From contig JBILHA010000001.1 of assembly GCA_044350705.1 (NCBI GenBank), positions 177,809-241,808 of the forward strand: a stretch of DNA of 64,000 nucleotides, read 5' to 3'. The position numbers and the translations under genes were made by a program. The notes below the pieces were generated by a model. That model was not told where the DNA came from. It worked only from the letters and a program-made list of their open reading frames with translations, and did no database searches. Source of the stretch: Candidatus Kapaibacterium sp. (GTDB taxonomy: Bacteria > Patescibacteriota > Patescibacteriia > UBA9934). Positions 2,326 to 26,448 of the stretch are shown here, one piece after another (within the stretch, counting starts at the first letter, position 1; every line of letters starts with the position of its first letter).

Positions 2326-2550
2326 AACGGCGGATGCTCTCACGATTTTTTTCCACTGTCAAGAAATTTTTTTGGGAAAATAAAATAAAATATTGCTTCA
2401 TTTAGCAAAATTTTATCTTCAGGAGAAATGTTTTTATTGCGTTGCTGCAGTCTTTTGGGGTGGAGGGAGTATGGTTTCGAGTATAGGCGGCTGCGCTCGC
2501 TTGCTTGCCTATAGAATCCAGCGAATTCTCATCCGCTCGCCCCTACAATG

Positions 2551-2580
2551 AAAAAAATACGGAAGAATCCGTAATTTTTT
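2551..2580. terminator. Putative bidirectional terminator hairpin
   Basis: aaaaaaa-tacgga-agaa-tccgta-attttttcg: a 6-bp stem flanked by A- and T-runs, downstream of the minus-strand gene ending at 2740. Confidence 0.4.
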
Positions 2581-2739
2581 CGTGGCAGGACACATGACTG
2601 CTGAACTCAATTTTCAGAGGCGTTTAAAGGATTTTGCGAACGTTACGCTGGCAGGCAGGTACGGTGATTAGTGTGGCTTTTAAAAAAAAAACAGATGAGT
2701 ATAATTAGTTGAAATTTGTTCAATTAAACGTATCATTTT

Positions 2740-3732
2740 TTAATTATTAAAATCAGCAATCCAAATATCGTGTGTATTTTTTAAAGCAATAATATTTTTA
2801 ATATTTAGTTTAGTCGCGTGTTCATTTATCTGTTCTTGATTTGCACCGGATAATTCTTTATGAATTGCATTCGCGACTGTTAGCGCTAAGAGGCGATGAT
2901 TTCCATCCATCACGCTATGCCCCCTGAAGATGCCAAATTCATATTCTTTTTTAAGAATGATGGGCTTTGGAAAAGTTCCATTTTCTAGGAGGTATCGAAG
3001 AGCGTTTTCAAAACGCCGATATCCATTTCCTGTTTTTTTCAAATTACTATAAGCATTGTCAATGTTATATAAATAACATTTTTGCATGTCTTCAAGGCAT
3101 TTTATTGCTGCAGTACTCCACCTAATACTAAATGGTTTAATATTAACCTTATTCCAAGTGGCACGCTGCCAGGTATGCAGATCTAATGTTAAAATACGTA
3201 ACCATCTTTCCGGATTTTTACTTTCATAAGGAGGCCATCCCTCATATTCAGCAAATGATAGTAGCCATTCATCGATGATTTCTTCTGGAAAATTTGGCAA
3301 ATCACGCTTAATGCTTTCTCGTAAAGAATTCGAAACATCTCCAGTCACTTCAATGGCAATAGCGAGTACTCCAAATTTCTGAATATCCTCTGATGAATAG
3401 TAGCGGGCCATGTCAGCCGCTGCCTGTTTCACGGTTGTGCCCGGACTCCACCCAGCAAGAGTGGGATCTGTTATCGTGAATAGTTCAATAAAATCTTTTG
3501 CAGTTTTGGTTTCCTTAACTAATGCTACCAATGTCTTGTTATTCTTACCGTCCGTGAAGCGAATATTGTCACCGGCATTAATACACTTACGCTTACTGTC
3601 ATTGAGACGAATTTCAAATATTTTCTCTTTGCGAGATATCATCCCGAACGATTCCGGATTAAGTTTCATTTTATGTTGCATAATTTTTGAAAAACCACCA
3701 GACATTGCTGGTGATTTTTCAGCTGCCGTCAT
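2740..3732 (-). CDS. ASCH (PUA-like) domain protein with C-terminal ParB/DGQHR-like domain (hypothetical)
   Basis: N-terminal ASCH-like pattern (KIFEIRLNDSKRKCINAGDNIRF...LVALVKE...FGVLAIAIEV). C-terminal ParBc/DGQHR-like motif IILKKEYEFGIFRGHSVMDGNHRLLAL. Gene is markedly AT-rich (~38% GC) versus ~49% background. It lies immediately downstream of tRNA-Trp on the same strand. Confidence 0.6.
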   Translation of the reverse strand: MTAAEKSPAMSGGFSKIMQHKMKLNPESFGMISRKEKIFEIRLNDSKRKCINAGDNIRFTDGKNNKTLVALVKETKTAKDFIELFTITDPTLAGWSPGTTVKQAAADMARYYSSEDIQKFGVLAIAIEVTGDVSNSLRESIKRDLPNFPEEIIDEWLLSFAEYEGWPPYESKNPERWLRILTLDLHTWQRATWNKVNIKPFSIRWSTAAIKCLEDMQKCYLYNIDNAYSNLKKTGNGYRRFENALRYLLENGTFPKPIILKKEYEFGIFRGHSVMDGNHRLLALTVANAIHKELSGANQEQINEHATKLNIKNIIALKNTHDIWIADFNN

Positions 3733-3823
3733 AATGCTCCTGAGAACCTGGAGAGACGCAGGTATCCGTGAGGATAATTAGCGTTGCCCTAGGCATTCAG
3801 GTATTTCGCACCATAACAGCGCT

Positions 3824-3897
3824 TGGCAGGGGCGGAGGGAATCGAACCCGCGCTAGAGGTTTTGGAGACCCCTGTACTACCATTATACGACGCCCCT
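3824..3897 (-). tRNA. trnW: tRNA-Trp (anticodon CCA)
   Basis: Reverse complement reads AGGGGCGTCGTATAATGGTAGTACAGGGGTCTCCAAAACCTCTAGCGCGGGTTCGATTCCCTCCGCCCCTGCCA. Acceptor stem AGGGGCG/CGCCCCT, anticodon stem GGGGT/ACCTC with loop CTCCAAA (U33, anticodon CCA, A37), GTTCGATTC T-loop, encoded CCA end. Confidence 0.85.
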
Positions 3898-4125
3898 ATG
3901 GAGTAACGTGCTATAGTTTTTCCAGTGATTTTGCTGGGAGAGTATACAGAATCTTTTCCTGTCCGGCAAGTAAAATATCCTATGACCCCAACGAGAGGAA
4001 TTATGGAAGAGGAAAAGAAAGATCTTGAATGTAGCGGGTATGGCGTAGCTTACGATTACATCTGAGCAGTTCTTTGCAAGGGTGAATATTCGTTGGGAGT
4101 TTCCCAAGGGGTTTCGTTGGAGAAT

Positions 4126-4155
4126 AAAAACACGTCTCATATGAGACGTGTTTTT
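4126..4155. terminator. Bidirectional terminator (perfect palindrome)
   Basis: aaaaacacgtctcat|atgagacgtgttttt is a perfect 30-nt palindrome with A5/T5 flanks. It sits directly after the stop of the minus-strand gene ending at 4159. Confidence 0.6.
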
Positions 4156-4158
4156 AGA

Positions 4159-5880
4159 CTATTCCGTAGCAAGTGCTCCTTCTCCCGCGGGGTTGTATCC
4201 TGCTTCTACCTCAGCTTTATCATCGAATCCATCATAGTCACTGTCGGTTGAGAGGTCGCTTGAGCGGTAGAGGACCGCTTCATCGTATGCCGAGAGTCCG
4301 TCTTCATCTTCGTCGGTTTTCTTTGCTCCTTCCTCGGAGAGAAAGAGTTCAGTTGCGGTGTTTGTGCCTTTTACCACTTTTCCATAGAAGGAAAATGTAT
4401 CATCTTCCTCCCCCTTTTTTACTTCAAAGAGTAAAGTGTATCCGTTTTCGGTACGGCTATATGGATAGGGTTTTTCTGTAAAAATGTCGTTTGGAATGGT
4501 GTTTACTTTTTTATATTCATCTTCGAGGCCGATCAGATCGTTGAGAGACTCGGGATACTCCCCACGCTCCCCATGGTAGAGATCAAGTGCGGATTGAATA
4601 TCGCTTACGGTTTCGAGTTGCGTATCTTGGTTTGCAGTTTCCATATCCATTCCCACGAGAAGATTGATTGCTTCTTCGGTGGTCATGGCATCTGTAGGAG
4701 CGCTTACATTTACGGGGATATTAATACTTTCAAAGTGTATTTCGGTTTCTAAAGTAATTTGTCGATCTTTCAGGAGATCTCCTTGGAGCTTTGGGGCCAG
4801 ACGTGTTGAGAGGGCGATCATGAGAGGGGTGCCGTCATCGCGCATGGTTGCTGAGAGGTTGAGTCTCTTGAAAAGCTCGCGGTAGATATCTCTTGCACGT
4901 TCCTTTGTAGACGCTTCAATAAATTCATCGGTAAATACCATGTATTCTTCGGTTTCCGGGAAGAGTCCTTCTCGGTCATCACCAATTGCAATGACTGTTT
5001 CGCGGAGTTTTTCTCCATCGATCACTGCGGTTGTATGCCATGCGCGTTCATCCTGATAGGTTACTCGTTCTGGAACTGAGAAAATGATCGCGCCATTTTT
5101 TACTCCTTGTTCAAGAAGGGTAAAGATCTCTTCTCGTGGATCAGGGCTTTTTTCTTTCTCGTCTTCCTTTTCCTCCTCTGATTCTTCAATATCCATAAAG
5201 AAGGGGTCGGTGTACGTGAATACTTCCTCACGTTCTTCCGATTCATTTTCAAGATCAATCCATTTTCCCTCTAAGGCGCTTAAGTCCAAGATGGGAATGG
5301 GGAGAGGAATGGCATCGGGCTTGATATAGGTCGTTCCTTCCACGGTACGTGTTGTGAGATCGATGTTTGCGCTTATATTGTTTCCGGTATACGTGCCTTG
5401 TATGCGTGTTTCTTCATTTGCTCCTTCTTGTTGTTCTGCGAAAGAAGAAGTAATGGAGAGATCGAGATGAAGATCGCTTGGGAGCATTTGGAGTGTGAGC
5501 GGATTGAGTGATTCGTCATCCATTTCTTTATCTAAGAAAAGAGAGAAATCAAGAGGCTCCACATCTTCTGCGCGAGGCTCTATGGCTACATTGAGGTTTA
5601 CGGTTGTTTTTGCTGAATTGATGCTTTGTAATGTGGCAAGCATCTGTTCTGCGGTCGGGCGTTTCATGAGCGGGTTCGGAAGATAGCCTGCCCAAGCGGC
5701 ATAGCCTAATCCGGTAATAGCGCCGATACCTACGATCGTTGCTCCTGCAATAAAGATGATGCGCTTTTTGCCATGTGAGGGTTTTGATGGAGGAGGAGAG
5801 GTGGGTTGAGGAATGGGAGTGGACGGTGCGTTTTGCCCCGCGGACATCTCGGGGAGCAAGGGGGAGGGGAGTTCTGGCAT
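4159..5880 (-). CDS. Hypothetical membrane-anchored acidic protein
   Basis: Pro-rich N-terminus, then one TM helix (IIFIAGATIVGIGAITGLGYAAWAGYL). Long Glu/Asp-rich extracytoplasmic region. C-terminal DSDYDGFDD acidic motif. No catalytic motif recognised. Confidence 0.55.
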   Translation of the reverse strand: MPELPSPLLPEMSAGQNAPSTPIPQPTSPPPSKPSHGKKRIIFIAGATIVGIGAITGLGYAAWAGYLPNPLMKRPTAEQMLATLQSINSAKTTVNLNVAIEPRAEDVEPLDFSLFLDKEMDDESLNPLTLQMLPSDLHLDLSITSSFAEQQEGANEETRIQGTYTGNNISANIDLTTRTVEGTTYIKPDAIPLPIPILDLSALEGKWIDLENESEEREEVFTYTDPFFMDIEESEEEKEDEKEKSPDPREEIFTLLEQGVKNGAIIFSVPERVTYQDERAWHTTAVIDGEKLRETVIAIGDDREGLFPETEEYMVFTDEFIEASTKERARDIYRELFKRLNLSATMRDDGTPLMIALSTRLAPKLQGDLLKDRQITLETEIHFESINIPVNVSAPTDAMTTEEAINLLVGMDMETANQDTQLETVSDIQSALDLYHGERGEYPESLNDLIGLEDEYKKVNTIPNDIFTEKPYPYSRTENGYTLLFEVKKGEEDDTFSFYGKVVKGTNTATELFLSEEGAKKTDEDEDGLSAYDEAVLYRSSDLSTDSDYDGFDDKAEVEAGYNPAGEGALATE

Positions 5881-5953
5881 ATGGTCCCTATCATAACATT
5901 TTTGATGTATGAAAAAACGTCCCCCATACCGCGTTGGGTGTGGGGGCGTTTTT

Positions 5954-6688
5954 TTATTTTTTGAATCCGCTAAATGCTTGAAGGATTTCGAGAGGAACCG
6001 TGAAGACGACGGTGTTGGATTGGTCGGAGCTCAGGTCGTTTATTGCGTGAAGAGTTCGCAGGTGGAGTGCGCCCGGAGCAGAGGCGAGCATACTCGCTGC
6101 TCGTGCAATGTTTTCCGAGGCCTTTACTTCACCTTCTGAATTGATTACTACGGCGTCGCGCTCACGTTCTGCTTCAGCTTTCTTTGCCATCGTACGAATC
6201 ATTTCAGGAGGAAGGTTAATGTCCTTCAATTCCACTGAAGATACCTCTACTCCCCAACTTGCAGTTACGGTTTCTAGGAGTTTCTCGATTTTTTCGGAGA
6301 TTGTTGCGCGTCCTGCGAGGAGTTCGTCAAGTGTTACTTCTCCTACCACGTTGCGCATGGTGGTTTGTGCGAGCTGCATGACCGCGTAATGTGCATTTTC
6401 TACTTCAAGAACAGATTTCGCGGGGTCAGCGATTTTGTAGTAGATTACTGCGTTAATTTTTGCAGATACGTTATCTTTTGTGATCGCGTCTTGACTGGGA
6501 ACATCCATTGCCTTTACGCGCAAGTCTACTTTACGGAGTGACTGAAATACAGGGATCACCAGTCTCCATCCTGGGTTTATGGTAGAGGTGTATTTTCCCA
6601 TGGTGAATTTAATACCTCGTTCGTACTGATTCACCTGACGCAGGGAAATGAGGAGTACCATGATGACCGGGAAAATCAATCCTTCCAT
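5954..6688 (-). CDS. SPFH/band-7 (stomatin/prohibitin-like) membrane protein
   Basis: N-terminal TM then SPFH-like core (RGIKFTMGKY...VDLRVKAMDVPSQDAITKDNVSAKINAVIYYKI...LAQTTMRNVVGEVTLDELL). Confidence 0.8.
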   Translation of the reverse strand: MEGLIFPVIMVLLISLRQVNQYERGIKFTMGKYTSTINPGWRLVIPVFQSLRKVDLRVKAMDVPSQDAITKDNVSAKINAVIYYKIADPAKSVLEVENAHYAVMQLAQTTMRNVVGEVTLDELLAGRATISEKIEKLLETVTASWGVEVSSVELKDINLPPEMIRTMAKKAEAERERDAVVINSEGEVKASENIARAASMLASAPGALHLRTLHAINDLSSDQSNTVVFTVPLEILQAFSGFKK

Positions 6689-6765
6689 AATATAAGGTTA
6701 ATTCTTTTGAGAGGAGCGTAGCAAAGCTATTTTCAAGAGACAAATTTTTGTTAGAATCTCTGTGT

Positions 6766-8007
6766 ATGGATTCTTCTGAAGATGTGTTGTTTCGTCGTGC
6801 ATTTGGTGCGGGTATTCTCGGTGCTTTTTTTGGTATAATCCTCGTCAGCGGAGGAGTATGGCTTTTGTATCAAGATCCTCGTGGAAAGTCATGGATTCAT
6901 GATCGTATTTCCTCTCTTTTGCTTACGGAGGAAGTTCCCACGATTACTGATACTACGGGAACGATTGATCCTCTTGTTTCCGTGGTTGCCGCTGCTGATC
7001 CTGCGGTTGTTTCGCTGGTGGTGACAAAGGAGGTTCCTATCTATGAGCGGTATTATGAGCGAGCCAATCCTTTCGGAGGGGGATTTTCTGGGTTCCTCAT
7101 TCCGCAGTATCGAGAGAATGGTACTCGTGAAGAGGAGGTATCGGGCGGAACGGGATTCTTCATTTCTTCGGATGGATATCTTGTAACAAATAATCACGTG
7201 ATAGATGTAGAAGAATCGTCGTATACCGTTTATCTTAATGATGGGGCTTCCTATCCTGCGAGCCTTATTGCAACAGATGCTTTGCTTGATGTAGCTCTGT
7301 TAAAAGTTGACGCGCCGGGTGTTTCATTTTCTTCGCTTTCTTTTGCTGATTCTGATAAGGCTCAAGCAGGTCAAACGGTTATCGCGATCGGAAATGCGCT
7401 CGGGGAATATCGTAATACGGTTTCTGTAGGAGTTATTTCGGGTTTGTCTCGCTCGGTGTTTGCGGCAACGACGGGAGGATCCGCGGAGCTATTGCAGGAT
7501 ATTATTCAGACCGATGCGGCGATCAACCCCGGGAATTCTGGAGGTCCGCTTCTTGATCTTTCGGGAAAGGTGATCGGGGTGAATGTTGCTGCGTCGGTAG
7601 GGAGCGCTGAGAATATTGGATTTGCTCTTCCTGCGAATGCGGTACGTGTCGCGGTAGAATCCATGAAAGAGCATGGGAAGATTCTTCGTCCATGGCTCGG
7701 GGTGCGTTATGACATGATTACTCCTGAGTTCGCGGAGAGCGCAGGATTGCCGGTGACTTTTGGAGCGCTTATTCGGAGAGGAGGGGATAATGAGCCCGCG
7801 GTTATTCCGGGTTCGCCTGCTGATAAAGCAGGGTTGGTGGAAAACGATATTATTTTGAGTGTAAATGGTGAGTTTGTGAATGATTCTCATGATTTAGGGT
7901 ATCTTCTTCGTCTTCATGCTCCTGGTGATGCTGTGGTTATTCGTGTTATGCGTGAGGGGGAAGAGCGCGAGTATCAGGTAACTCTTGAAGAGCGTCCTGC
8001 TGAATAG
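6766..8007 (+). CDS. htrA: HtrA/DegP-family serine protease with C-terminal PDZ domain
   Basis: Trypsin-like catalytic motifs GTGFFISSDGYLVTNNHV (His), D in LLDVALLKVD, GNSGGPL (Ser). C-terminal PDZ-like segment. N-terminal TM. ORF track starts at a TTG at 6748; first ATG is 6766. Confidence 0.85.
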   Translation: MDSSEDVLFRRAFGAGILGAFFGIILVSGGVWLLYQDPRGKSWIHDRISSLLLTEEVPTITDTTGTIDPLVSVVAAADPAVVSLVVTKEVPIYERYYERANPFGGGFSGFLIPQYRENGTREEEVSGGTGFFISSDGYLVTNNHVIDVEESSYTVYLNDGASYPASLIATDALLDVALLKVDAPGVSFSSLSFADSDKAQAGQTVIAIGNALGEYRNTVSVGVISGLSRSVFAATTGGSAELLQDIIQTDAAINPGNSGGPLLDLSGKVIGVNVAASVGSAENIGFALPANAVRVAVESMKEHGKILRPWLGVRYDMITPEFAESAGLPVTFGALIRRGGDNEPAVIPGSPADKAGLVENDIILSVNGEFVNDSHDLGYLLRLHAPGDAVVIRVMREGEEREYQVTLEERPAE

Positions 8008-10911: not shown

Positions 10912-11697
10912 ATGATTGACGTCGTTCTTGCTCCACGCGAGTACGTTACCTGGGGACCTTTCATGATTACTGATGCCAATCTTGGAGCACTTATTTCCAC
11001 GTTTCTTCTCGTGCTTCTTGTTGCGTTTGGCATGAAGAAATTTACGTTGGTACCTACGCGTTTGCAGGTTATTGTGGAAGGTGCGATTGATGTGGTGTAT
11101 AGCCGATTGCTTTCTGCATTTGGTAATGATAAGGATGTTCGTTCGTTTTTACCGCTGTTCGTTTCGTTGCTCTTTTTTATTTTTGTTGCGAATCAGCTCA
11201 CGCTCATGCCGTTCATGTTTGATATTTTGTGGGGTGATGCGGCGCTTGTTCGTCAACCGACATCAGATTTATCTGGTACGATCGTTCTTGCTGCGCTTGT
11301 AGTGATTACTGCGAATATTTTGTCATTTCGTGCATCACCGTGGGGACATGCCCGTACGTTTTTTCCTCTTGATACCTTATTTCGTGCGCGATCATTTGGT
11401 GCATTTTTCCAAGCGTGTATCGATGTTGCACTTGGTCTTCTTAATATCATTGGTGAAATTGCAAAGGTTATTTCACTTTCTTGCCGTTTGTTTGGAAATA
11501 TTTTTGCAGGAAATGTTATCGTTCTTGTTTTGGCGGGCATTACCGCGTTTACGGGATACATTGTCCCCATTCCATTTCTCGTATTGAGTATCTTTTCTGG
11601 CCTTGTGCAGGCCTACGTATTTACTGCACTTTCTATGGAATTTACGCTTGGTCCTGTGCTTGGTGCGCGTGCGTATCGTGAGGCGGTGAAAAACTAA
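10912..11697 (+). CDS. atpB: F0F1 ATP synthase subunit a
   Basis: Multi-TM protein with the conserved Arg motif LSCRLFGNIFAGNVIVLVL. RBS GGGAAG 5 nt upstream. Confidence 0.9.
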   Translation: MIDVVLAPREYVTWGPFMITDANLGALISTFLLVLLVAFGMKKFTLVPTRLQVIVEGAIDVVYSRLLSAFGNDKDVRSFLPLFVSLLFFIFVANQLTLMPFMFDILWGDAALVRQPTSDLSGTIVLAALVVITANILSFRASPWGHARTFFPLDTLFRARSFGAFFQACIDVALGLLNIIGEIAKVISLSCRLFGNIFAGNVIVLVLAGITAFTGYIVPIPFLVLSIFSGLVQAYVFTALSMEFTLGPVLGARAYREAVKN

Positions 11698-11757
11698 TTT
11701 GCATTTTTTCACAAAGCCTTCATACTATATTCGTCTTAAAATTATTTTTTCCATTTT

Positions 11758-11988
11758 ATGGATGCAGAAGCAGCACGTTACATGGCAGCAGGTCTTTGTA
11801 TGGGTATTGGTTCTATCGCACCAGCACTTGCCGAAGGTTTTGTTGCAGGAAAGGCAATGGAATCCATCGGTCGTAATCCAGAGGTAAGCGATAAAATCAC
11901 CCCAACCATGATTACCGCAATGGCAATTTGTGAATCTACGGGTATTTACGCACTTATCATCTCTCTTCTTATTCTCTTCGTCGCGTAA
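11758..11988 (+). CDS. atpE: F0F1 ATP synthase subunit c
   Basis: 76 aa hairpin proteolipid: GLCMGIGSIAPALAEGFVAGKAMESIGRNPE...AMAICESTGIYALIISLLILF, with the conserved carboxylate in ICES. Confidence 0.9.
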   Translation: MDAEAARYMAAGLCMGIGSIAPALAEGFVAGKAMESIGRNPEVSDKITPTMITAMAICESTGIYALIISLLILFVA

Positions 11989-12005
11989 GCGAATTTTGCC
12001 AAGGT

Positions 12006-12503
12006 ATGGAAGCTTCGGGTATTGCAAAGCTCGGCATTAACTGGCAGAGCATGCTGCTCTACTTCGTGAACTTTGGCGTTCTCTTTTTCGTGCTCAGGCA
12101 CTTTTTAGGAAAAAAGGTGCTCGTTCTTTTGGATGAACGGAGAAATCGTATTGCCGAGAGCGTTGAAGCCGCGGATCGTTTAAAGAAAGAGGTTGAGCAA
12201 GAGCGTGGTCGATTGGCCGAGGAAATGCACGAGCTTCGTACGCAGTTTGCATATGAGACTTTGCAAATGCGCAAAGGCTTGGAAGAAGAGCGGGCAAAGG
12301 CACTTGCACATGTAGAAGAGTACCGCGCACAAGCGCTTGCCCAGGTTGAGGCAGAGGCAAAAAGTGTTCGCGCGCGCATGTTTTCCGATATGCAAGAGGA
12401 AATTCGTTCCGTTGTTGCTGAAATGACCTTGCGTATTCTTGGAGATCGTATTTCTTCAGAGGATATTGATCGAGCTGCACATAATTCGCGGAAGTCGGTA
12501 TGA
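12006..12503 (+). CDS. atpF: F0F1 ATP synthase subunit b
   Basis: N-terminal TM then long charged coiled-coil (RIAESVEAADRLKKEVEQERGRLAEEMHELR...). Position between atpE and atpH. Confidence 0.8.
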   Translation: MEASGIAKLGINWQSMLLYFVNFGVLFFVLRHFLGKKVLVLLDERRNRIAESVEAADRLKKEVEQERGRLAEEMHELRTQFAYETLQMRKGLEEERAKALAHVEEYRAQALAQVEAEAKSVRARMFSDMQEEIRSVVAEMTLRILGDRISSEDIDRAAHNSRKSV

Positions 12504-12994
12504 TGACTGATGTTTTTTGCGCCTATTTGCTCGATACATGGAATAATTCCTCGTCTGTTGAGCGAGATCCTCTTTTCCTTTCTGTTCTTGCGGGGAGGAT
12601 GTCTTTTGGGGCTGCGATCAAAAAGGCGAGATTTCGCTCTCATGAATTCGTATTGCTTTTTGCAAGTTTTCTTGAACGGCCCGATCTTGCTGAAAGAAAA
12701 GCTTACCCGCTTTTTTTCCAGGCACTTGATCGCGTTGCTCGTGTTACTCAGGCTGATGAACGGAAGAGGATTCATTGGGATCGTGAATGCCTTTTGTTTG
12801 CTCAGGCATTGGGAAGGTCGGTTACTCGGTTGCAAGTTGCATCTTCTGCGCAGGCACCGTCTTATTCATTTGGGACATTTGTGCGTGTGTATCGACAGCT
12901 TTTAGGAGGTTCGCGTACGTTTCATCATAGCTCGCTTCTTGATGCGAGTTGGATAGGTCGTGTACGTGCATTCACTCAACGAATTACGTTCTAG
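12500..12994 (+). CDS. atpH: F0F1 ATP synthase subunit delta (OSCP), divergent
   Basis: 164-aa ORF in the canonical delta position between atpF and atpA, overlapping atpF stop by 4 nt. Sequence is divergent, so the call rests mainly on synteny. Confidence 0.55.
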   Translation: MMTDVFCAYLLDTWNNSSSVERDPLFLSVLAGRMSFGAAIKKARFRSHEFVLLFASFLERPDLAERKAYPLFFQALDRVARVTQADERKRIHWDRECLLFAQALGRSVTRLQVASSAQAPSYSFGTFVRVYRQLLGGSRTFHHSSLLDASWIGRVRAFTQRITF

Positions 12995-12995
12995 T

Positions 12996-14502
12996 ATGGA
13001 TATTTCCCCCCAAAAAATTAGTGAAGCATTCGCTCAGGCGCTTGCCCGTGATACGGCCGAGCAGCAGGTAGATCGTGTTGGTGTTGTCGAAACCATGAAA
13101 GATGGTGTTGCGCGCATTGTCGGTATTTCCGGTGTGGTAATGGGCGAGGTGCTTGAAGTACACGATGGCGCCCCTGTTCGTCTTTTGGCCATGGATATTG
13201 ATACTGAAGGGGTATATGCCCTTGTTCTTGATACCGCGCAAGAGGTTCGCGAAGGTACTGCGGTCCGTGCTACGGGTGAGCGTCTTTCGCTTCCGGTTGG
13301 CGATGCGTTGTTTGGTCGAGTTGTTGATCCGCTCGGTCGTCCGCTTGATGGGCTCGGGGAGGTGAAAACTGCTCAGCGTGGATTTTTGGAATCTCCTGCT
13401 CCTTCGGTTATGGAGCGAAAGAGCGTGCACGAGCCTTTGCAAACTGGAATTTTGGCTATTGATGCCATGATCCCTATTGGTCGTGGTCAGCGTGAGTTGA
13501 TTATCGGTGATAGAAAAACGGGAAAATCGAGTGTTGCATTTTCTACCATTCTTGAACAAAAGAAAGCGGGTGTTTTCTGTATTTATGTAGCTGTTGGTCA
13601 GCGCGAAGCTGCGGTTGCTGAGTTCGTTGAGCGTCTTCGTCAAACGGGTGCTCTGTCGTATACGGCGGTTATTTCCGCGAGTGCATCTGCTCCGGCGACG
13701 TTGCAGTATCTTGCGCCGTACGCAGGTGCCGCTCTTGGCGAATACATTATGCGTTCCGGTCGTCATGCAGTAGTTATTTATGACGATCTTTCCAAGCATG
13801 CGGTTGCGTACCGTGAAGTTTCGCTTCTTTTGCGCCGTCCGCCAGGACGTGAGGCATATCCTGGAGATGTTTTCTTCTTGCATTCGCGGCTTTTGGAGCG
13901 CGCTGCAAAGCTCTCTGATGAGTTGGGTGGAGGATCTCTCACTGCGCTTCCGATCATTGAAACTCAAGCAGGCGACGTTTCTGCTTACATTCCTACGAAC
14001 GTCATCTCTATCACCGATGGTCAGATCTTCCTTGATCGAAGTTTGTTTAATTCGGGTATTCTTCCCGCGATCAACATTGGTATTTCGGTTTCTCGTGTGG
14101 GAGGTGCCGCGCAAACAAATCTCATGAAGAAGGTTTCCGGATCTTCAAAGCTTGAATTGGCGCAGTATTACGAATTGGCGGCATTCTCTCAATTCGCGAG
14201 TGAGCTTGATGATAGTGCTCAGCAGCAGCTTCGTCGCGGAGAGCGTGTGGTAGAGGTTCTGAAGCAAGGCGCTGATCAGCGATATGCGGTTTGGGAGGGT
14301 TCACTCTTGTTGTACGCGGTTTCTCAGGGTTATTTTGATTCTATTCCTCGTGGAGATGTGCTCCGTGTAAAGGACGCGTTCCTTTTGCAAGTTGCTCGCA
14401 GTGAGAAAGATCTTGTTGATCGACTTGAAACGCAGCCGGTCTTGAATGATGAAGTAAAATCTCGATTTGCCGAACTCTTGAAGAAGTATCCGGCGCAGTC
14501 GT

Positions 14503-14516
<14 letters not shown>
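12996..14516 (+). CDS. atpA: F0F1 ATP synthase subunit alpha
   Basis: Walker A GDRKTGKS. Strong alpha-subunit similarity throughout (LIIGDRKTGKSSVAFSTILEQK...ALPIIETQAGDVSAYIPTNVISITDGQIFL). ATG 12996 chosen (ORF track GTG at 12960 overlaps atpH). Confidence 0.95.
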
Positions 14517-16798
<2,282 letters not shown>

Positions 16799-16801
16799 CG
16801 T

Positions 16802-17215
16802 ATGCGTTGCGAGCTTATTACTCCTTCAGCTTCGTTCGAGCGCACGTTTACGGACGTGCGTTCGGTCCGAGGTGCTTCACAAACCGGAGCGCTAGAAATT
16901 TTTTCCGGTCACGTGCCTTTTTATGCAACGGGGAACGCTTCGCCTTTGCATGTTCTTCAGCAAGATGGGCGTGAGGAAATTTTCCTTCTCCTTCGTCCGA
17001 CATATCGGGTCTGGCAAGATGAACAGGGGGAGACGGTGGTTACGGTGGCTGCACAACAGGCTTTTTTGCGTGAAGTAGATGTTCACATTTCGTTGCGTAC
17101 GTATGTTGAGCGTTTGCGTGAGATACTTTCTACGCATGAAGCCTCATCGCATGAGAAGATCTTTTTAGAGGAAGAGCTTCTGCTCACTTCAAAACTGGTT
17201 CAGGATGAAAAATAA
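16802..17215 (+). CDS. atpC: F0F1 ATP synthase subunit epsilon
   Basis: 137 aa. N-terminal beta-sandwich pattern (LEIFSGHVPFYATG) and C-terminal helical region. Last gene of the operon. Confidence 0.85.
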   Translation: MRCELITPSASFERTFTDVRSVRGASQTGALEIFSGHVPFYATGNASPLHVLQQDGREEIFLLLRPTYRVWQDEQGETVVTVAAQQAFLREVDVHISLRTYVERLREILSTHEASSHEKIFLEEELLLTSKLVQDEK

Positions 17216-17250
17216 AAAAATCTCCAGAAATATTTCTGGAGATTTTTTTA
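17213..17250. terminator. Bidirectional rho-independent terminator (atp operon end / rpmB end)
   Basis: aaaaaaa-atctccagaaatatttctggagat-ttttttt: a perfect 10-bp stem with A7 and T7 flanks. Confidence 0.7.
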
Positions 17251-17478
17251 TGCTACGAAAGAGCGGAGATCAACCTTCTTTCCTTCCGCGAGCCACTTGT
17301 TGAGGGTGCGGAGTGCACGACCGGTTACCAATACCTTCATTGCCTTTCCTGTTGCAGGATTGATGACCGTTTTCTTTTGCAGATTCGGCATCTGGCGGCG
17401 CTTGGTTTTGCGGTTGGAGTGCGAAACGTTGTTTCCAACGAGGGGCTTCTTGCCCGTAATTGCACAAACTTTAGCCAT
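17248..17478 (-). CDS. rpmB: 50S ribosomal protein L28
   Basis: [36 protein letters not shown].... Start chosen at the MAKVC Met. ORF track extends 12 codons upstream to 17514. Confidence 0.8.
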
Positions 17479-17680
17479 AAGAGAAAACTTTTTTATTTTG
17501 TCTCTTTCCGGCATGCTCCTTGAAAGTTTCGACGGCGTACGAAATAGTACGTCTTGACGATTCTTTCGGCGTCGCGAGCCGAAAATAGCTTAAAATAAAG
17601 AAAGTTTTTAAAATTAAGAACGCAAATACTGTATCTTATCTGGGAAAATTTGGCAAGTAAACAGGGTATACTATCCCCAT

Positions 17681-19042
17681 ATGCGTTCTTCGTTTGTAGG
17701 GAGGGAGGGGGATGGGCTCGCGCACGTTGTTGCGGTGAGTATGGGATACGGGCACGAGCGTGCGGCTTTTGGCCTTCGGCATTTGGCGAAAGGAAAGGTA
17801 GTTCTTGCGAATGCGTACGAGGGTATTCCTCAGGGGGATCATTTTCTTTGGCATGAGGGAAGAAGGTGGTATGAACGTATCTCCCGGTTTAAGAAGGTGC
17901 CGATGATGGGGAAATGGGTCTTTGGCGCCATGGATCACTTGCAGCGCATTGATGACTTTTATCCTCGGAGAGACTTATCTGAGCCTACGCTTCAGTTGAG
18001 GCAGACGTATGGTCTTTTGCGGGGCAAGGGATGGGGAAGGCATCTGGTCGAGCAACTTGCAAAGGATCGGAAGCCGCTCGTCTCTACATTTATGACCCCT
18101 GCATTTGCGGCGGAAGAATTCGGGTATCCCGAAGATATTTATCTGGTTACTTGCGATGCTGATGTTAGTCGTGGATGGGCTCCCTTACGGCCCCAAAAAA
18201 GTCGTATCCAGTATATTGCTCCTACGGGAAGAGTTGCAGAGCGCTTACAGCTTTACGGAGTTCCTAAGAGGAATATTCATCTTACGGGCTTTCCTCTTCC
18301 TCCGGAAAATATTGGCGGTCAAGATCCGAAGACCCTTTTGCAGGATCTTAATCGTCGACTTTGTCTTCTTGATTCGCAAGGAGTCTTCGCGCAATGGGCA
18401 TCTCCTATGCTTGCCGCTTCGCTTGGAGAAGGATTTTGTGAGTGGCCACGGAAGCGGGCTACCCCGCTCCATGTAGCTTTTGCAGTTGGTGGTGCTGGCG
18501 CACAGGTTGATCTTGGTATCGCGCTCCTTCGTTCGCTTGCAAAAGATATCCATGCAGGGCGGGTGGTTCTCACGCTTATTGCTGGAACGCTTGAGCATAT
18601 TGGTAAACAATTTCTTGATGCAGTTCGTGCTGCTGATCTCGATCGGGCGCTTCAGACCGGAGGCGTTGTGGTCCTGTGCGAGCGCGAACGACATGTATAT
18701 TTTACTGCTTTTGGAGATACGATGAGGAAAGTTGACGTACTTATCACGAAGCCTTCCGAACTTTCGTTTTATGTTGGTTTGGGCATTCCGCTTATTATGA
18801 CCGAGCCGGTGGGAAGTCAGGAATTGTTTAATCGATCGTGGCTCTTTCAAGTGGGCGCGGGAGCGGATATGCTTGATCCCCATTTTGCGCATGAATGGCT
18901 GTGGGACTGGGTTGCTTCGGGCGCGTTAGCGCGTATGGCATGGATGGGATTTATGAATGCTCCCACGCATGGTGCATACCGTATTGAAGATCTTATTCGA
19001 GGAAAAACGGCAACTATGCACCCTTTGCCACTTATTGTGTAA
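17681..19042 (+). CDS. GT28-like (MGDG synthase/UgtP-like) glycosyltransferase, divergent
   Basis: N-terminal HVVAVSMGYGHERAAFGL resembles the G-x-GH motif of MGDG-synthase-family GT-B enzymes. C-terminal VDVLITKPSELSFYVGLGIPLIMTEPVGSQELFNRSWL resembles the GT-B C-domain nucleotide-sugar pocket. Pattern-level only. Confidence 0.5.
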   Translation: MRSSFVGREGDGLAHVVAVSMGYGHERAAFGLRHLAKGKVVLANAYEGIPQGDHFLWHEGRRWYERISRFKKVPMMGKWVFGAMDHLQRIDDFYPRRDLSEPTLQLRQTYGLLRGKGWGRHLVEQLAKDRKPLVSTFMTPAFAAEEFGYPEDIYLVTCDADVSRGWAPLRPQKSRIQYIAPTGRVAERLQLYGVPKRNIHLTGFPLPPENIGGQDPKTLLQDLNRRLCLLDSQGVFAQWASPMLAASLGEGFCEWPRKRATPLHVAFAVGGAGAQVDLGIALLRSLAKDIHAGRVVLTLIAGTLEHIGKQFLDAVRAADLDRALQTGGVVVLCERERHVYFTAFGDTMRKVDVLITKPSELSFYVGLGIPLIMTEPVGSQELFNRSWLFQVGAGADMLDPHFAHEWLWDWVASGALARMAWMGFMNAPTHGAYRIEDLIRGKTATMHPLPLIV

Positions 19043-24403: not shown

Positions 24404-25435
24404 ATGCCTTTGTGGATTTATCCTGTTATTTTAGCAGCATTTGCCTGCTCTGCTGGAGGGGTTTTTTTCTGTATGAATCTTGCTCAACAGTGGAAGGTTT
24501 TGGATGTGCCGGCATTACCGAAGAAGGTCCATGATGTTCCTACCCCTTTATGGGGAGGTGTTGCTCCTTTTCTTCTCTTTATCCTTTTTGCAGGAGTGGT
24601 AGAGCTAACCACAGGATTTTTTACCTCTGGTTCACTTGCTTCTCAAACTCTGTGGGGATTTTTTGGTGCACTTCTCATTTTGGTTGGAGGGGGCATGTGG
24701 GATGATGTGAAGGCGCTTCCTCCGCGTGTTTCTTTTTTATTTCCTTTTCTTGCCGCTCTTCTTGCGGTTGCAGCGGGAATGGGAGTGAGCAAGGTTACCA
24801 ATCCTTTTGGAGGTGCTTTTGTGGTCGCGTCATCTCTTTCGGTGGTTATTACTTTTTTGTGGCTATTGGGCGTAACGTACACCACTAAGCTTTTAGATGG
24901 CGTAGACGGTCTTGCAACGGGCGTGGGGATGGTTGGTGCGGTGATGATTGCGGCGCTTACGTTAAGCGAACGTTGGTACCAGCCGGATATTGCCCTTCTC
25001 TCTCTTCTTTTTTTTGCGGTTCTTCTCGGGTTCTTTTTATGGAATAGCGCACCTGCGAAGATTTTTCTTGGCGAAGCCGGGAGTACCGCGATTGGGTTTA
25101 CTCTTGGCGCCCTCGCCGTGATGGGAGGAAGCAAATTTGCAACGCTTTTGCTTGTTGTTGGTCTTCCAGCGCTTGATGTGGCCTTTGTGATGGTGCGAAG
25201 AATTTTGGTGAGGAGATCGCCTTTTCAAGGAGGGGATGGGTTTCATTTTCATACGGTACTTCGGAAATGTGGATGGTCTGCACGCAAGATTGTTGCGCTC
25301 TACATGGCCACCGCTTTTATTTTTGGAGCAACTACACTTCTTTTTGTTTCTTGGCAGAAGCTGCTTGCGTTGGCAGTTTTGGGGGGTGGCGCTCTTGTTG
25401 CCATGATTGTTTTTGCAAGAAAGGCAGAGGGATAG
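24404..25435 (+). CDS. MraY/WecA-family polyprenyl-phosphate sugar-1-phosphate transferase
   Basis: Polytopic membrane protein with family motifs LLDGVDGLATGV and IFLGEAGSTAIGFTLG. A His-rich loop DGFHFH is suggestive of MraY, but MraY versus WecA not resolvable by eye. Confidence 0.7.
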   Translation: MPLWIYPVILAAFACSAGGVFFCMNLAQQWKVLDVPALPKKVHDVPTPLWGGVAPFLLFILFAGVVELTTGFFTSGSLASQTLWGFFGALLILVGGGMWDDVKALPPRVSFLFPFLAALLAVAAGMGVSKVTNPFGGAFVVASSLSVVITFLWLLGVTYTTKLLDGVDGLATGVGMVGAVMIAALTLSERWYQPDIALLSLLFFAVLLGFFLWNSAPAKIFLGEAGSTAIGFTLGALAVMGGSKFATLLLVVGLPALDVAFVMVRRILVRRSPFQGGDGFHFHTVLRKCGWSARKIVALYMATAFIFGATTLLFVSWQKLLALAVLGGGALVAMIVFARKAEG

Positions 25436-25491
25436 CTTTTTTTGGGAGATTTGCTACCCTTGTGCTGCCCAATTTCAAGGAGGGCAGGATC

Positions 25492-26448
25492 ATGAGTCTG
25501 TATCAGCTTCGTACGGTTTCTCTGGACGATCTCCGTTCCATTGGTTCCGGCGTTCTCGTTCGGCAGATTCTCCGGGATGATTTCCTCCTGGTCGAGGGGG
25601 CTGCATCGGAGCAGCTCATGGACGACGCTGAGGGTCTCACTCAGCGTCTGTTCACCGAGTGGTCTCTCTGGGAGCTGGAGGAGCGGTACGGTCGTCCCAG
25701 TCTCCGTCGCCAGCGTGGTCTCACGGCCAAGCTGGGTGTGGAGCAGGCGGCTGCTCGCCCGGGTGAGAAGGAACGTCCTCCGGGGGACATGAAGGTCTTC
25801 GGCATGTTCCGGATGGAAGAATGGCCTGACAACATGGCCGTGGATGCGCCGTTCGGTCCCAACCTCTGGCCGGATGAGATCTTGCCGGAATTCAAGCCGG
25901 TCATGCTGCGGCACATGCAGGCGCAGATGGATGTCTACATGGCGGTGCTCGGTGCTCTGGAGGAGGCCTATGGCTTCTCGCAGGGTTTCCTGCAGCGCAT
26001 GGCACGTGGCGCTGAATCTGTCGCTCGCAACATCTTCTACCCGGGGTCTGATCTCCTTGCGCAGTGGGGGATCGAGGTTCCGGAAGGTGCACTGCAGTCT
26101 GCTCCGCACGAGGACATCAACGGCTGTACCGTGCTTCGGCTCAACAAGGGGTTGTATCTTCAGCGCCATGATGAATGGAAGCGGGTGGATACCTCGAACC
26201 GCAGGGCCTTTGGGGTCAATGTCGGTGAGATGATCTGCAAGGTGGCCGGGATCGATGATCTTGTCCCCACCACGCACTGCGTCGGTGCGCCTCCAGGTGT
26301 TTTCGACCCTGAAGCCGAGATGCTCCAGCGGATGCCGCGTGTGGCCATTCTGCTCTTCGGTCACTTCCTTCGTTCGACTGAGCTCAGGCCTGGTCTTCGA
26401 ACGGGGGACTGGTTCGACCAGCGTATTCAGGAGATCACCCAGGGTTGA
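25492..26448 (+). CDS. 2OG-Fe(II) oxygenase superfamily protein (IPNS-like), high-GC gene
   Basis: Starts MSLYQL with RBS AAGGAGG 7 nt upstream. Putative HxD...H iron triad (APHEDINGCTVL ... TTHCVGAPPG). Codon usage strongly GC3-biased, ~62% GC against a ~49% background. Confidence 0.5.
   Translation: MSLYQLRTVSLDDLRSIGSGVLVRQILRDDFLLVEGAASEQLMDDAEGLTQRLFTEWSLWELEERYGRPSLRRQRGLTAKLGVEQAAARPGEKERPPGDMKVFGMFRMEEWPDNMAVDAPFGPNLWPDEILPEFKPVMLRHMQAQMDVYMAVLGALEEAYGFSQGFLQRMARGAESVARNIFYPGSDLLAQWGIEVPEGALQSAPHEDINGCTVLRLNKGLYLQRHDEWKRVDTSNRRAFGVNVGEMICKVAGIDDLVPTTHCVGAPPGVFDPEAEMLQRMPRVAILLFGHFLRSTELRPGLRTGDWFDQRIQEITQG

Follow-up and report, generated by a model that had tools for sequence, protein, structure and literature searches.

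Does the single AT-rich gene that follows the tRNA-Trp gene in a Candidatus Kapaibacterium sp. genome belong to a genomic islet inserted at the 3' end of that transfer RNA (tRNA) gene, and if so, where does the islet begin and end? The locus lies in a 64,000-nt stretch of this genome (assembly GCA_044350705.1, contig JBILHA010000001.1, positions 177,809-241,808), hereafter the window. P4-type and related integrases insert islands at tRNA 3' ends, where the direct repeats attL and attR restore the tRNA. The mobile DNA and defence genes of the Patescibacteria (candidate phyla radiation) are poorly charted, their genomes being small, uncultured and mostly available as metagenome bins. A preliminary description of the window had noted tRNA-Trp (minus strand, 3897..3824) as its sole tRNA, on which ARAGORN and Rfam agree for tRNA-Trp(CCA), and had reported on the same strand a gene at 3732..2740 and a spacer of about 400 bp. 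These correspond to a 330-aa open reading frame (ORF), hereafter the cargo gene, and to a 396-bp spacer, beyond which lies a gene for a LysM-domain protein (1372-2343). The same description proposed a minimal or decayed islet with one cargo gene at a tRNA 3' end, a reading that our analysis largely supports, with corrected borders and a shorter repeat. We consider it probable that the islet was acquired horizontally, as 1,241 bp inserted precisely between the tRNA-Trp 3' end and the original terminator of this tRNA, that it originated by site-specific recombination, and that it resembles a cis-mobilizable element (CIME).

An empty site and the borders of the insertion

When metagenome contigs were scanned with the 3'-terminal 47 nt of the tRNA, only one matched, the 6,079-bp contig JACCDG010994287.1 (L089). 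This contig is also the closest relative found, with about 75-76% nucleotide identity over window 4172-7930 (the genes for an HtrA-like protease, the SPFH/Band 7 protein Band7 and the 573-aa protein p573) and a Band7 protein sharing about 91% amino-acid identity with that of the window. L089 4744-4820 is 97% identical to tRNA-Trp (window 3900-3824) and L089 4814-4909 is 83% identical over 96 nt to window 2589-2496; the first match ends with exactly the 7 nt with which the second begins, CCTGCCA, an overlap that the empty site has as a single copy. As the L089 tRNA runs straight into the homologue of window 2582-2496, window 2583-3823 is an indel with base-pair-exact borders (Table 1). The distal flank aligned with the L089 trailer at z = 38, whereas the tRNA-proximal flank was unalignable (z = -0.7), as was window 2344-2495. 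The insertion begins at the first nucleotide past the encoded CCA (3823) and leaves tRNA-Trp intact. It separates the tRNA from its original terminator at about 2549-2581 (stem-loop at 2558-2573 with A and T runs in a terminator scan), the counterpart of a bidirectional terminator, AAAAAAATTACGGA...TCCGTAATTTTTTT, that lies directly after tRNA-Trp in L089. The empty junction predicted for the window is ...CGCCCCTGCCA joined to CGAAAAAATTACGG..., and the predicted circle junction is ...GTCATGTGT CCTGCCA AGCGCTGTTATGG...; a 20-mer of the latter had no match in IMG/VR. The AT-rich unit described earlier (2344-3897) is therefore real as an islet but narrower than drawn, since 2496-2582 is conserved backbone and the 91 nt next to the tRNA (3733-3823) have a G+C (GC) content of 50.5%.

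Table 1. Positions of the islet, its parts and its surroundings in the window, and of LysM homologues near tRNA genes in other genomes.
Feature	Position	Strand	Basis or remark
Inserted islet, 1,241 bp (one repeat copy counted)	2583..3823	minus	absent from L089; 38.1% GC
tRNA-Trp (anticodon CCA), CCA end encoded	3824..3897	minus	ARAGORN; Rfam RF00005, 56 bits; 97% identity to L089 tRNA; insertion target
Promoter-like site 5' of tRNA-Trp: TTGCCG, 17 nt, TATACT	3941..3969	minus	consensus scan only; putative function
Proximal direct repeat CCTGCCA (attL-like core), last 7 nt of tRNA	3824..3830	minus	overlap of L089 matches
Structured RNA module, hairpin of about 105 nt, then terminator-like hairpin with T run (3688-3721)	3688..3823	minus	
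Cargo ORF, 330 aa as called	2740..3732	minus	ORF list; JGI, NCBI, Logan assemblies
Probable N-terminal ASCH/DUF3850 (PUA-like) domain, residues 19-129	3346..3678	minus	
C-terminal domain, about 195 aa, probably divergent ParB/Srx superfamily	2743..3327	minus	
DGNHR motif (D276-R280)	2893..2907	minus	D, G, R invariant, H nearly invariant in family (alignment A1)
3' non-coding part of islet, 35.3% GC	2590..2739	minus	extra internal CCTGCCA at 2649-2655
Distal direct repeat CCTGCCA (attR-like core)	2583..2589	minus	overlap of L089 matches
Displaced original tRNA-Trp trailer: terminator hairpin, then conserved stretch	2496..2582	minus	backbone, not islet; 83% identity to L089
LysM homologue near tRNA-Ser(tga)	L083 5768-5993		beside type IV secretion-like genes
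LysM homologue near tRNA-Ala(ggc)	L088 7798-8001		
LysM homologue near tRNA-Ser(gga)	L085 3613-3834		

The repeat of the tRNA end at the distal border, expected earlier to span 15-25 nt, is thus present but only 7 bp long. A 22-mer of the tRNA end matched only the tRNA itself when up to 3 mismatches were allowed, and local alignment of the two 47-nt junction regions yielded only the 7-mer. By our own estimate, the chance of a 7-nt overlap at a random junction is about 6e-5. All eight occurrences of CCTGCCA in the window are on the minus strand, and by our own estimate the extra internal copy is insignificant at this density. The motif CCTGCCA(G)CGT(AA)CGTTCGC in the 3' part of the islet resembles 18012-18032 of a related locus, L010 (z = 4.1); CCTGCCA-CGT-CGTTCGC was also sought in IMG/VR, where its 31 matches are about chance level by a rough estimate of ours. 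A candidate decayed tRNA copy at 2455-2546 (minus strand; begins TAGGGGCG, ends TCCCTCCACCCC, 11/12 match) was rejected: relaxed ARAGORN gave nonsense calls, Rfam at E <= 10 was empty and the fold was unremarkable (z = -0.6). Its 5' half is conserved in L089, and the stretch is therefore backbone trailer and not an att site. Separately, directly past the 96 nt common with the window, the GC content of L089 rises from about 47% to 65% (5100-5700), in a stretch that holds a lipoprotein-like ORF (5053-5772, minus); this stretch either is another insertion of foreign DNA or results from chimeric assembly.

With its single copy in the empty site, the 7-bp direct repeat also has the formal look of a target-site duplication, as a transposase acting on a non-autonomous transposon or an element like a miniature inverted-repeat transposable element would leave. 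However, the islet has no terminal inverted repeats (best local alignment of its two 80-nt ends, z = -0.45), neither a transposase ORF nor transfer genes were found in it, its ends have no second copy in the compared loci or in the 64 kb plus 10 kb of this genome that were covered, and the extreme 3' end of a tRNA is a target typical of site-specific recombinases. We regard transposition as very unlikely. The earlier remark that an integrase is missing held up in tblastn with two large serine recombinases (L003, L092) and an approximate E. coli XerD sequence, a probe less sensitive than a profile search, which returned nothing with E <0.7 in the window and 10 kb past its left end. The empty site in L089 and the repeat of the tRNA end also agree with the tRNA 3' end as integration target, and a 1,241-bp unit with one gene, att-like repeats and no recombinase is what a minimal or decayed islet would look like. 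Such an islet would owe its entry to site-specific recombination at the 3' end of tRNA-Trp, and its 7 bp of identity would fit the overlap region used by a tyrosine recombinase or a large serine recombinase with its short core; either a larger island would then have decayed to a one-gene remnant, or the islet would be a non-autonomous unit that needs a recombinase in trans.

The islet also stands out by composition. The GC content is 37.2% in the cargo gene and 37.9% in the spacer (2344-2739), compared with a window mean of 47.6%, so that the 38% read by eye in the preliminary description was accurate and its 49% for the flanks slightly high (47.0% in the LysM gene, 46.7% in the upstream 573-aa gene). 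In 993-bp windows (standard deviation 2.7%), the islet region is the only stretch below 40% GC in the 64 kb, with a minimum of 36.0%, and at 1-kb resolution the rest never falls below 42.7%. Among 40 long ORFs, the cargo gene has the lowest GC content (z = -3.6), outside the range of the window, and the lowest GC content at third codon positions (GC3; 30.6%, z = -2.0). The codon-usage comparison suggested earlier was less telling, as the Karlin-type codon-bias distance of the gene (0.39 vs a mean of 0.385, in a crude ORF set) is no outlier. The step in GC within the islet lies at about 3690 and not at the tRNA end. An outlier of the opposite kind is the ORF at 25267-26448 (plus strand), with the highest GC content in the window (58%; GC3 66%) and a high codon-bias distance.

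The ordinary codon-bias distance, and the generally fast decay of synteny in these genomes, would fit a native, fast-evolving gene whose low GC content is coincidental or reflects local mutational bias, with no horizontal transfer. This explanation is contradicted by the precise empty site in L089, the unique GC minimum and the near-orphan protein, and we find it hardly credible. The islet sequence recurs in JGI, NCBI and Logan assemblies, on contigs of up to 509 kb, and the cargo ORF is therefore no assembly artefact; its source samples are JGI 3300042340, JGI 3300059473 and SRR27421204. Among 5.8 billion sequences the cargo protein found only itself and one partial ASCH match; the gene was thus not met at this locus in related genomes, and no second protein has its exact architecture. 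The partial match (P0002) was discarded as a homologue of the whole fusion, its C-terminal part being unrelated to the family described below.

The cargo protein and its relatives

Residues 19-129 of the cargo protein matched phrog_19935, 'RNA-binding protein', with E = 1.2e-18, and scored just below the Pfam cut-offs for DUF3850 (20.9 bits, cut-off 22.9) and ASCH (17.7 bits, cut-off 21.2); the domain is probably PUA-like, and the JGI name of the protein is 'ASC-1-like (ASCH) protein'. The C-terminal half (residues 125-330) had no match in Pfam, PHROG or PADLOC. An exhaustive HMMER search assigned to it a family of 259 representative clusters (E <= 0.001), in which stand-alone proteins of 170-210 aa predominate; two longer members have a different domain at the N terminus, namely HTH_3 in the first and, by a weak match, an MdcG-like one in the second. 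In the numbering of the 206-aa C-terminal query, W32, W69, D152, G153, R156 and W200 are invariant in the family alignment. AlphaFold2 with alignment A1 modelled the C-terminal domain with a predicted local distance difference test (pLDDT) score of 96.2 and a predicted template modelling score of 0.90; a single-sequence AlphaFold model of the whole protein (pLDDT 36) was unusable.

In profile searches against the PDB, the best matches were 1vk1/SerK and SbnI (E 0.004-0.01), followed by Spo0J (E 0.57), and DGNHR aligned to DGHHR of 1vk1/SerK. Foldseek against PDB and BFVD gave weak (E 0.03-3) but consistent matches to ParB, Noc, KorB, SbnI, Srx, DndB-like proteins and GmrSD_N, and members of the family weakly match DUF1015, GmrSD_N and ParB_N. 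We conclude that the C-terminal half is probably a divergent ParB/Srx-superfamily domain, an assignment that is weak by every single measure. It is not a canonical ParB, as it has no GERRxRA box (DGNHRLLA instead), no helix-turn-helix (HTH) and no parA neighbour, its neighbours being tRNA-Trp and the LysM gene; a Pfam ParB_N match is likewise absent.

Stand-alone relatives of the C-terminal domain lie beside a restriction-modification system and a UvrD/PD-(D/E)XK protein in one case, beside AAA_15/21, Ea47 and a large serine recombinase in another, and beside a KAP NTPase in a third. Others belong to arrays of small ORFs on one strand that include a TIR-domain gene (L129; also L130-L132 and L094); there, a GGCGTTAG/T motif recurs at the end of the 86-162-nt spacers and the whole resembles an integron cassette array. 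These contexts are the pattern of accessory, conflict-related, mobile genes. In another setting, the stand-alone relative P0168 (JGI 3300056388) sits alone between rplE (L5) and rpsN (S14) in an otherwise canonical ribosomal protein operon. The cargo protein had no match among INPHARED phages, and in PADLOC 2.0 neither the whole protein nor its C-terminal domain matched a family at E <= 1. We infer that the cargo may be an accessory, nucleic-acid-directed conflict protein acting in defence or counter-defence, in which the PUA-like domain would recognize RNA or a modified base and the ParB/Srx domain would bind or hydrolyze a nucleoside triphosphate, or act as a kinase or nuclease.

A structured RNA at a variable site

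The gene order LytR, HU, (Gmad2), HtrA, Band7 upstream of tRNA-Trp is conserved in the closest relatives; the best relatives of the upstream SPFH/Band 7 protein come from Patescibacteria bins (61-85% identity), many of them labelled Uhrbacteria. tRNA-Trp lies downstream of Band7 in six loci (L003, L004, L007, L009, L010, L021), with a p573 homologue in between in L004. Downstream of the tRNA, no genes are common to the relatives and the window, nor to the relatives themselves. With the upstream order constant and everything downstream different, tRNA-Trp is where a conserved block stops and variable DNA begins. The tRNA is followed in the relatives by a terminator (L089, L009, L010, L021; in the latter three the hairpin is immediately 3' of the tRNA) or by other variable genes (L003, L004), and the idea that it is normally followed by the LysM gene did not hold. 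LysM homologues (35-56% identity) occur in unrelated contexts, and their synteny gave no empty site. In three other Patescibacteria genomes, such homologues lie about 130-140 nt from a tRNA gene (Table 1). By eye, the 50-64 pair in the T stem of tRNA-Trp is non-Watson-Crick in the window and L003 (C-U) and in L010 and L021 (U-C), and regular in L004. A perfect 16+16-nt palindrome, TAAAAACACGTCTCAT/ATGAGACGTGTTTTTA, at window 4125-4156 just 3' of the 573-aa gene is probably the bidirectional terminator of that gene.

In L003, the DNA after tRNA-Trp (11558-16665) encodes a 265-aa protein without assigned function, a histidyl-tRNA-synthetase paralogue, a SLOG cluster-4 protein, a PRTase-like protein and a recombinase, and looks like a mobile island with a conflict system of the nucleotide-signalling type. 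The recombinase is a large serine recombinase (15250-16665, minus), 3.8-5.2 kb downstream of the tRNA, and recombinase-bearing variable DNA therefore occurs at this site in the clade. In L010, the 4.7 kb 3' of the tRNA (13275-18046) has about 44% GC vs 51% upstream. At its far end, 10 nt of the tRNA end recur as GCCCCTGCCA (18009-18018), together with a perfect 26-bp palindrome, a further CCTGCCA (18040-18046) and a terminator. The proximal and distal terminators of this region resemble the L089 trailer equally, and the region is a candidate for a further island without a recombinase at this site.

The first 135 nt of the islet form a structured RNA module with a minimum free energy of -63 kcal/mol (z = -6.2 and -6.7 vs shuffles), its long hairpin closed by GCGCUGUUAUGGUGC / GCAUUAUGACGGCAGC. 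The 130-nt trailers after tRNA-Trp in L003 (11418-11545) and L004 (13972-14100) are 79% identical to each other and show the same layout (fold z = -4.3 and -3.0); their homology stops at the module end, with unrelated genes beyond. Although sequence-level homology of the window module to these trailers was insignificant by blastn and Smith-Waterman, RNAalifold on the three sequences gave a common structure with compensatory changes, in which 89% of the alignment cells pair vs 29-50% in slid controls and eight pairs are changed on both sides vs 0-3 in the controls. A covariance model built from L003 and L004 alone had window 3823-3675 as its sole match in 155 kb (22 bits, rough E = 0.003), full length and beginning at the first base past the tRNA. 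The only other match of covariance model R1, in L043 (27 bits), is a tRNA-Glu plus terminator and was set aside as a false positive. Rfam 15 has no family for the module: only the tRNA passed the gathering threshold in the window, and the best E-value-level matches to the module were terminator-like (15-21 bits vs cut-offs of 47-100). It may be a new structured RNA.

The module bears on the start of the cargo gene. The called start, ATG 3732, has an AGGAG 4 nt upstream, yet lies inside the closing stem of the module, with the terminator in codons 4-15, and is probably not the real start. ATG 3681 (M18), 7 nt past the terminator T run, is likelier, because ATG 3732 is buried in that stem and the domain profiles begin at residue 19. 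In all three loci the first variable gene starts 7-25 nt past the module T run (window ATG 3681, L003 11558, L004 14105). A consensus scan found no second promoter-like site on the minus strand between tRNA-Trp and the cargo ORF besides the one at 3941-3969. The cargo is probably expressed by read-through from this tRNA promoter, in a transcript ending at the old tRNA terminator; the module would take the place of the displaced terminator and gate the read-through into the cargo.

This arrangement invites the alternative that the tRNA-Trp promoter and the module with its terminator are resident and that promoterless cargo is exchanged behind them, the moved unit being only about 2590-3687. Such an exchange would account for the short and promoterless distance between terminator and first variable gene in the window, L003 and L004, for the end of the L003-L004 homology at the module end, for the drop in GC from about 3690 rather than from the tRNA end, and for the cassette-like arrays around relatives of the C-terminal domain. 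Yet the sole empty site, L089, also has no module, and the junction with its 7-bp repeat is at the tRNA end; moreover, there are three examples only, and neither a recombination site nor a recombinase is defined. We judge the exchange rather unlikely. Similarly doubtful is the wider notion that tRNA-Trp promoter and conserved RNA module form a dedicated landing and expression platform, behind which unrelated promoterless genes are swapped under gated read-through.

A further alternative is that the segment is ancestral to the clade and was lost from L089 between the CCTGCCA copies, by microhomology-mediated deletion or precise excision. The module is apparently common to L003 and L004, which are more distant than L089, and at 50.5% GC it is backbone-like. 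Against such a loss stand the low GC content (35-37%) of the cargo gene and the 3' region and the near-orphan status of the gene, the unrelated genes with which L003 and L004 continue past the module, the terminator that follows the tRNA at once in L009, L010 and L021, as in L089, and the displaced tRNA end and terminator at the far border, which are the footprint of an earlier insertion. The event itself could have been a gain in the window lineage or a precise loss in L089, a direction not fully decided; we hold the loss to be unlikely, albeit worth keeping in view. Even if L089 did lose the segment, its AT-rich orphan cargo, like the displaced terminator, implies that it had once been inserted.

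Several points weigh against insertion by site-specific recombination and against the proposed nature of the cargo. A single empty-site genome was found, and it is of a different species; since the module seems common to L003 and L004, a gain in the window lineage and a precise loss in L089 are on a par in parsimony, with two gains costing no more than a gain followed by a loss. The repeat measures only 7 bp compared with the 15-60 nt usual in classical tRNA islands, a candidate for the acting recombinase was not found anywhere in the data compared, and no distal CCTGCCA was found in L003 and L004 within 9.3 and 6.7 kb. The kinship of the module with the L003 and L004 trailers is drawn from just three sequences, with a rough E of 0.003, and plain alignment does not bear it out. 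On the protein side, the ParB/Srx assignment is marginal by each measure (E 0.004-0.3), with a common core of only about 50 residues, and the suggested conflict function finds no backing from any defence-system model.

Significance and comparison with known systems

The locus provides a base-pair-resolved case of what is probably horizontal gain at a tRNA gene in Patescibacteria, extends classical tRNA-island logic down to a single-gene unit, and singles out tRNA-Trp as a hot spot of variation in this lineage. It also led to the definition of a ParB/Srx-like family of about 260 clusters without a Pfam model but with a confident structure model, and the small structured RNA beside tRNA-Trp may insulate or gate the expression of acquired genes. 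Current ideas are not overturned; the value lies in annotation and in concrete experimental candidates. If a landing platform did exist, the swapped genes would comprise the ASCH-ParB/Srx fusion, the L003 set with SLOG and the histidyl-tRNA-synthetase paralogue, and the TPR and NucS-like genes of L004, which would amount to an integron-like system of cassettes linked to a tRNA, in bacteria about whose mobile elements very little is known.

Proteins that fuse a ParB fold to DUF3850 or ASCH are already known, and are reported to be enriched among prophages and in archaea (PMC12704722). The cargo shares with these ParB-CTPase-fold proteins the apparent combination of PUA-like and ParB/Srx-superfamily domains and the association with mobile DNA, but its ParB-like half is unseen by Pfam ParB_N and carries DGNHR instead of GERRxRA, its PUA-like domain is N-terminal, and there is no adjacent parA. 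SerK (PDB 1vk1, 5x0b) and SbnI (5ujd) match best by profile and by structure, the alignment covering about 45-50 residues on either side of and including the DG(H/N)HR nucleotide-binding motif. That match is marginal (E 0.004-0.8), however, the N-terminal helical part of the cargo domain, rich in invariant Trp, has no counterpart in them, and no metabolic gene context surrounds the cargo.

Integron cassettes are similar in that the islet is a single promoterless gene behind a resident promoter, and in that relatives of the C-terminal domain occur in cassette-like arrays with the recurring GGCGTTAG/T motif. They differ in structure: the single-stranded DNA fold of 2575-2745, 3' of the cargo gene, was no better than shuffles (z = +0.76) and thus gave no attC-like element, the GTTRRRY core is absent from the islet junctions (which are CCTGCCA), and an integron integrase is absent.

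Also close are the genomic islands at tRNA 3' ends. The islet has in common with them the exact tRNA 3' end as site, an intact tRNA, flanking direct repeats of the tRNA end, atypical composition, absence from a relative (the empty site) and a variable region 3' of the tRNA; it departs from them in being only 1.24 kb long with one gene, in having a 7-bp repeat and no integrase, and in its uncultured Patescibacteria host. CIMEs are elements without integration and transfer genes that keep attL and attR (PMC5704250). The islet likewise is flanked by att-like repeats and has no recombination or transfer genes, and its site carries other variable DNA in relatives, once with a large serine recombinase. 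The CIMEs described are from Firmicutes and usually larger, and for the islet, descent from an integrative and conjugative or integrative and mobilizable element, like cis mobilization, is hypothetical. In kind, the locus is probably a known one, a tRNA-linked genomic islet or CIME; it comes from an under-explored phylum, carries an uncharacterized ASCH-ParB/Srx fusion and has one feature that may be new, the RNA module.

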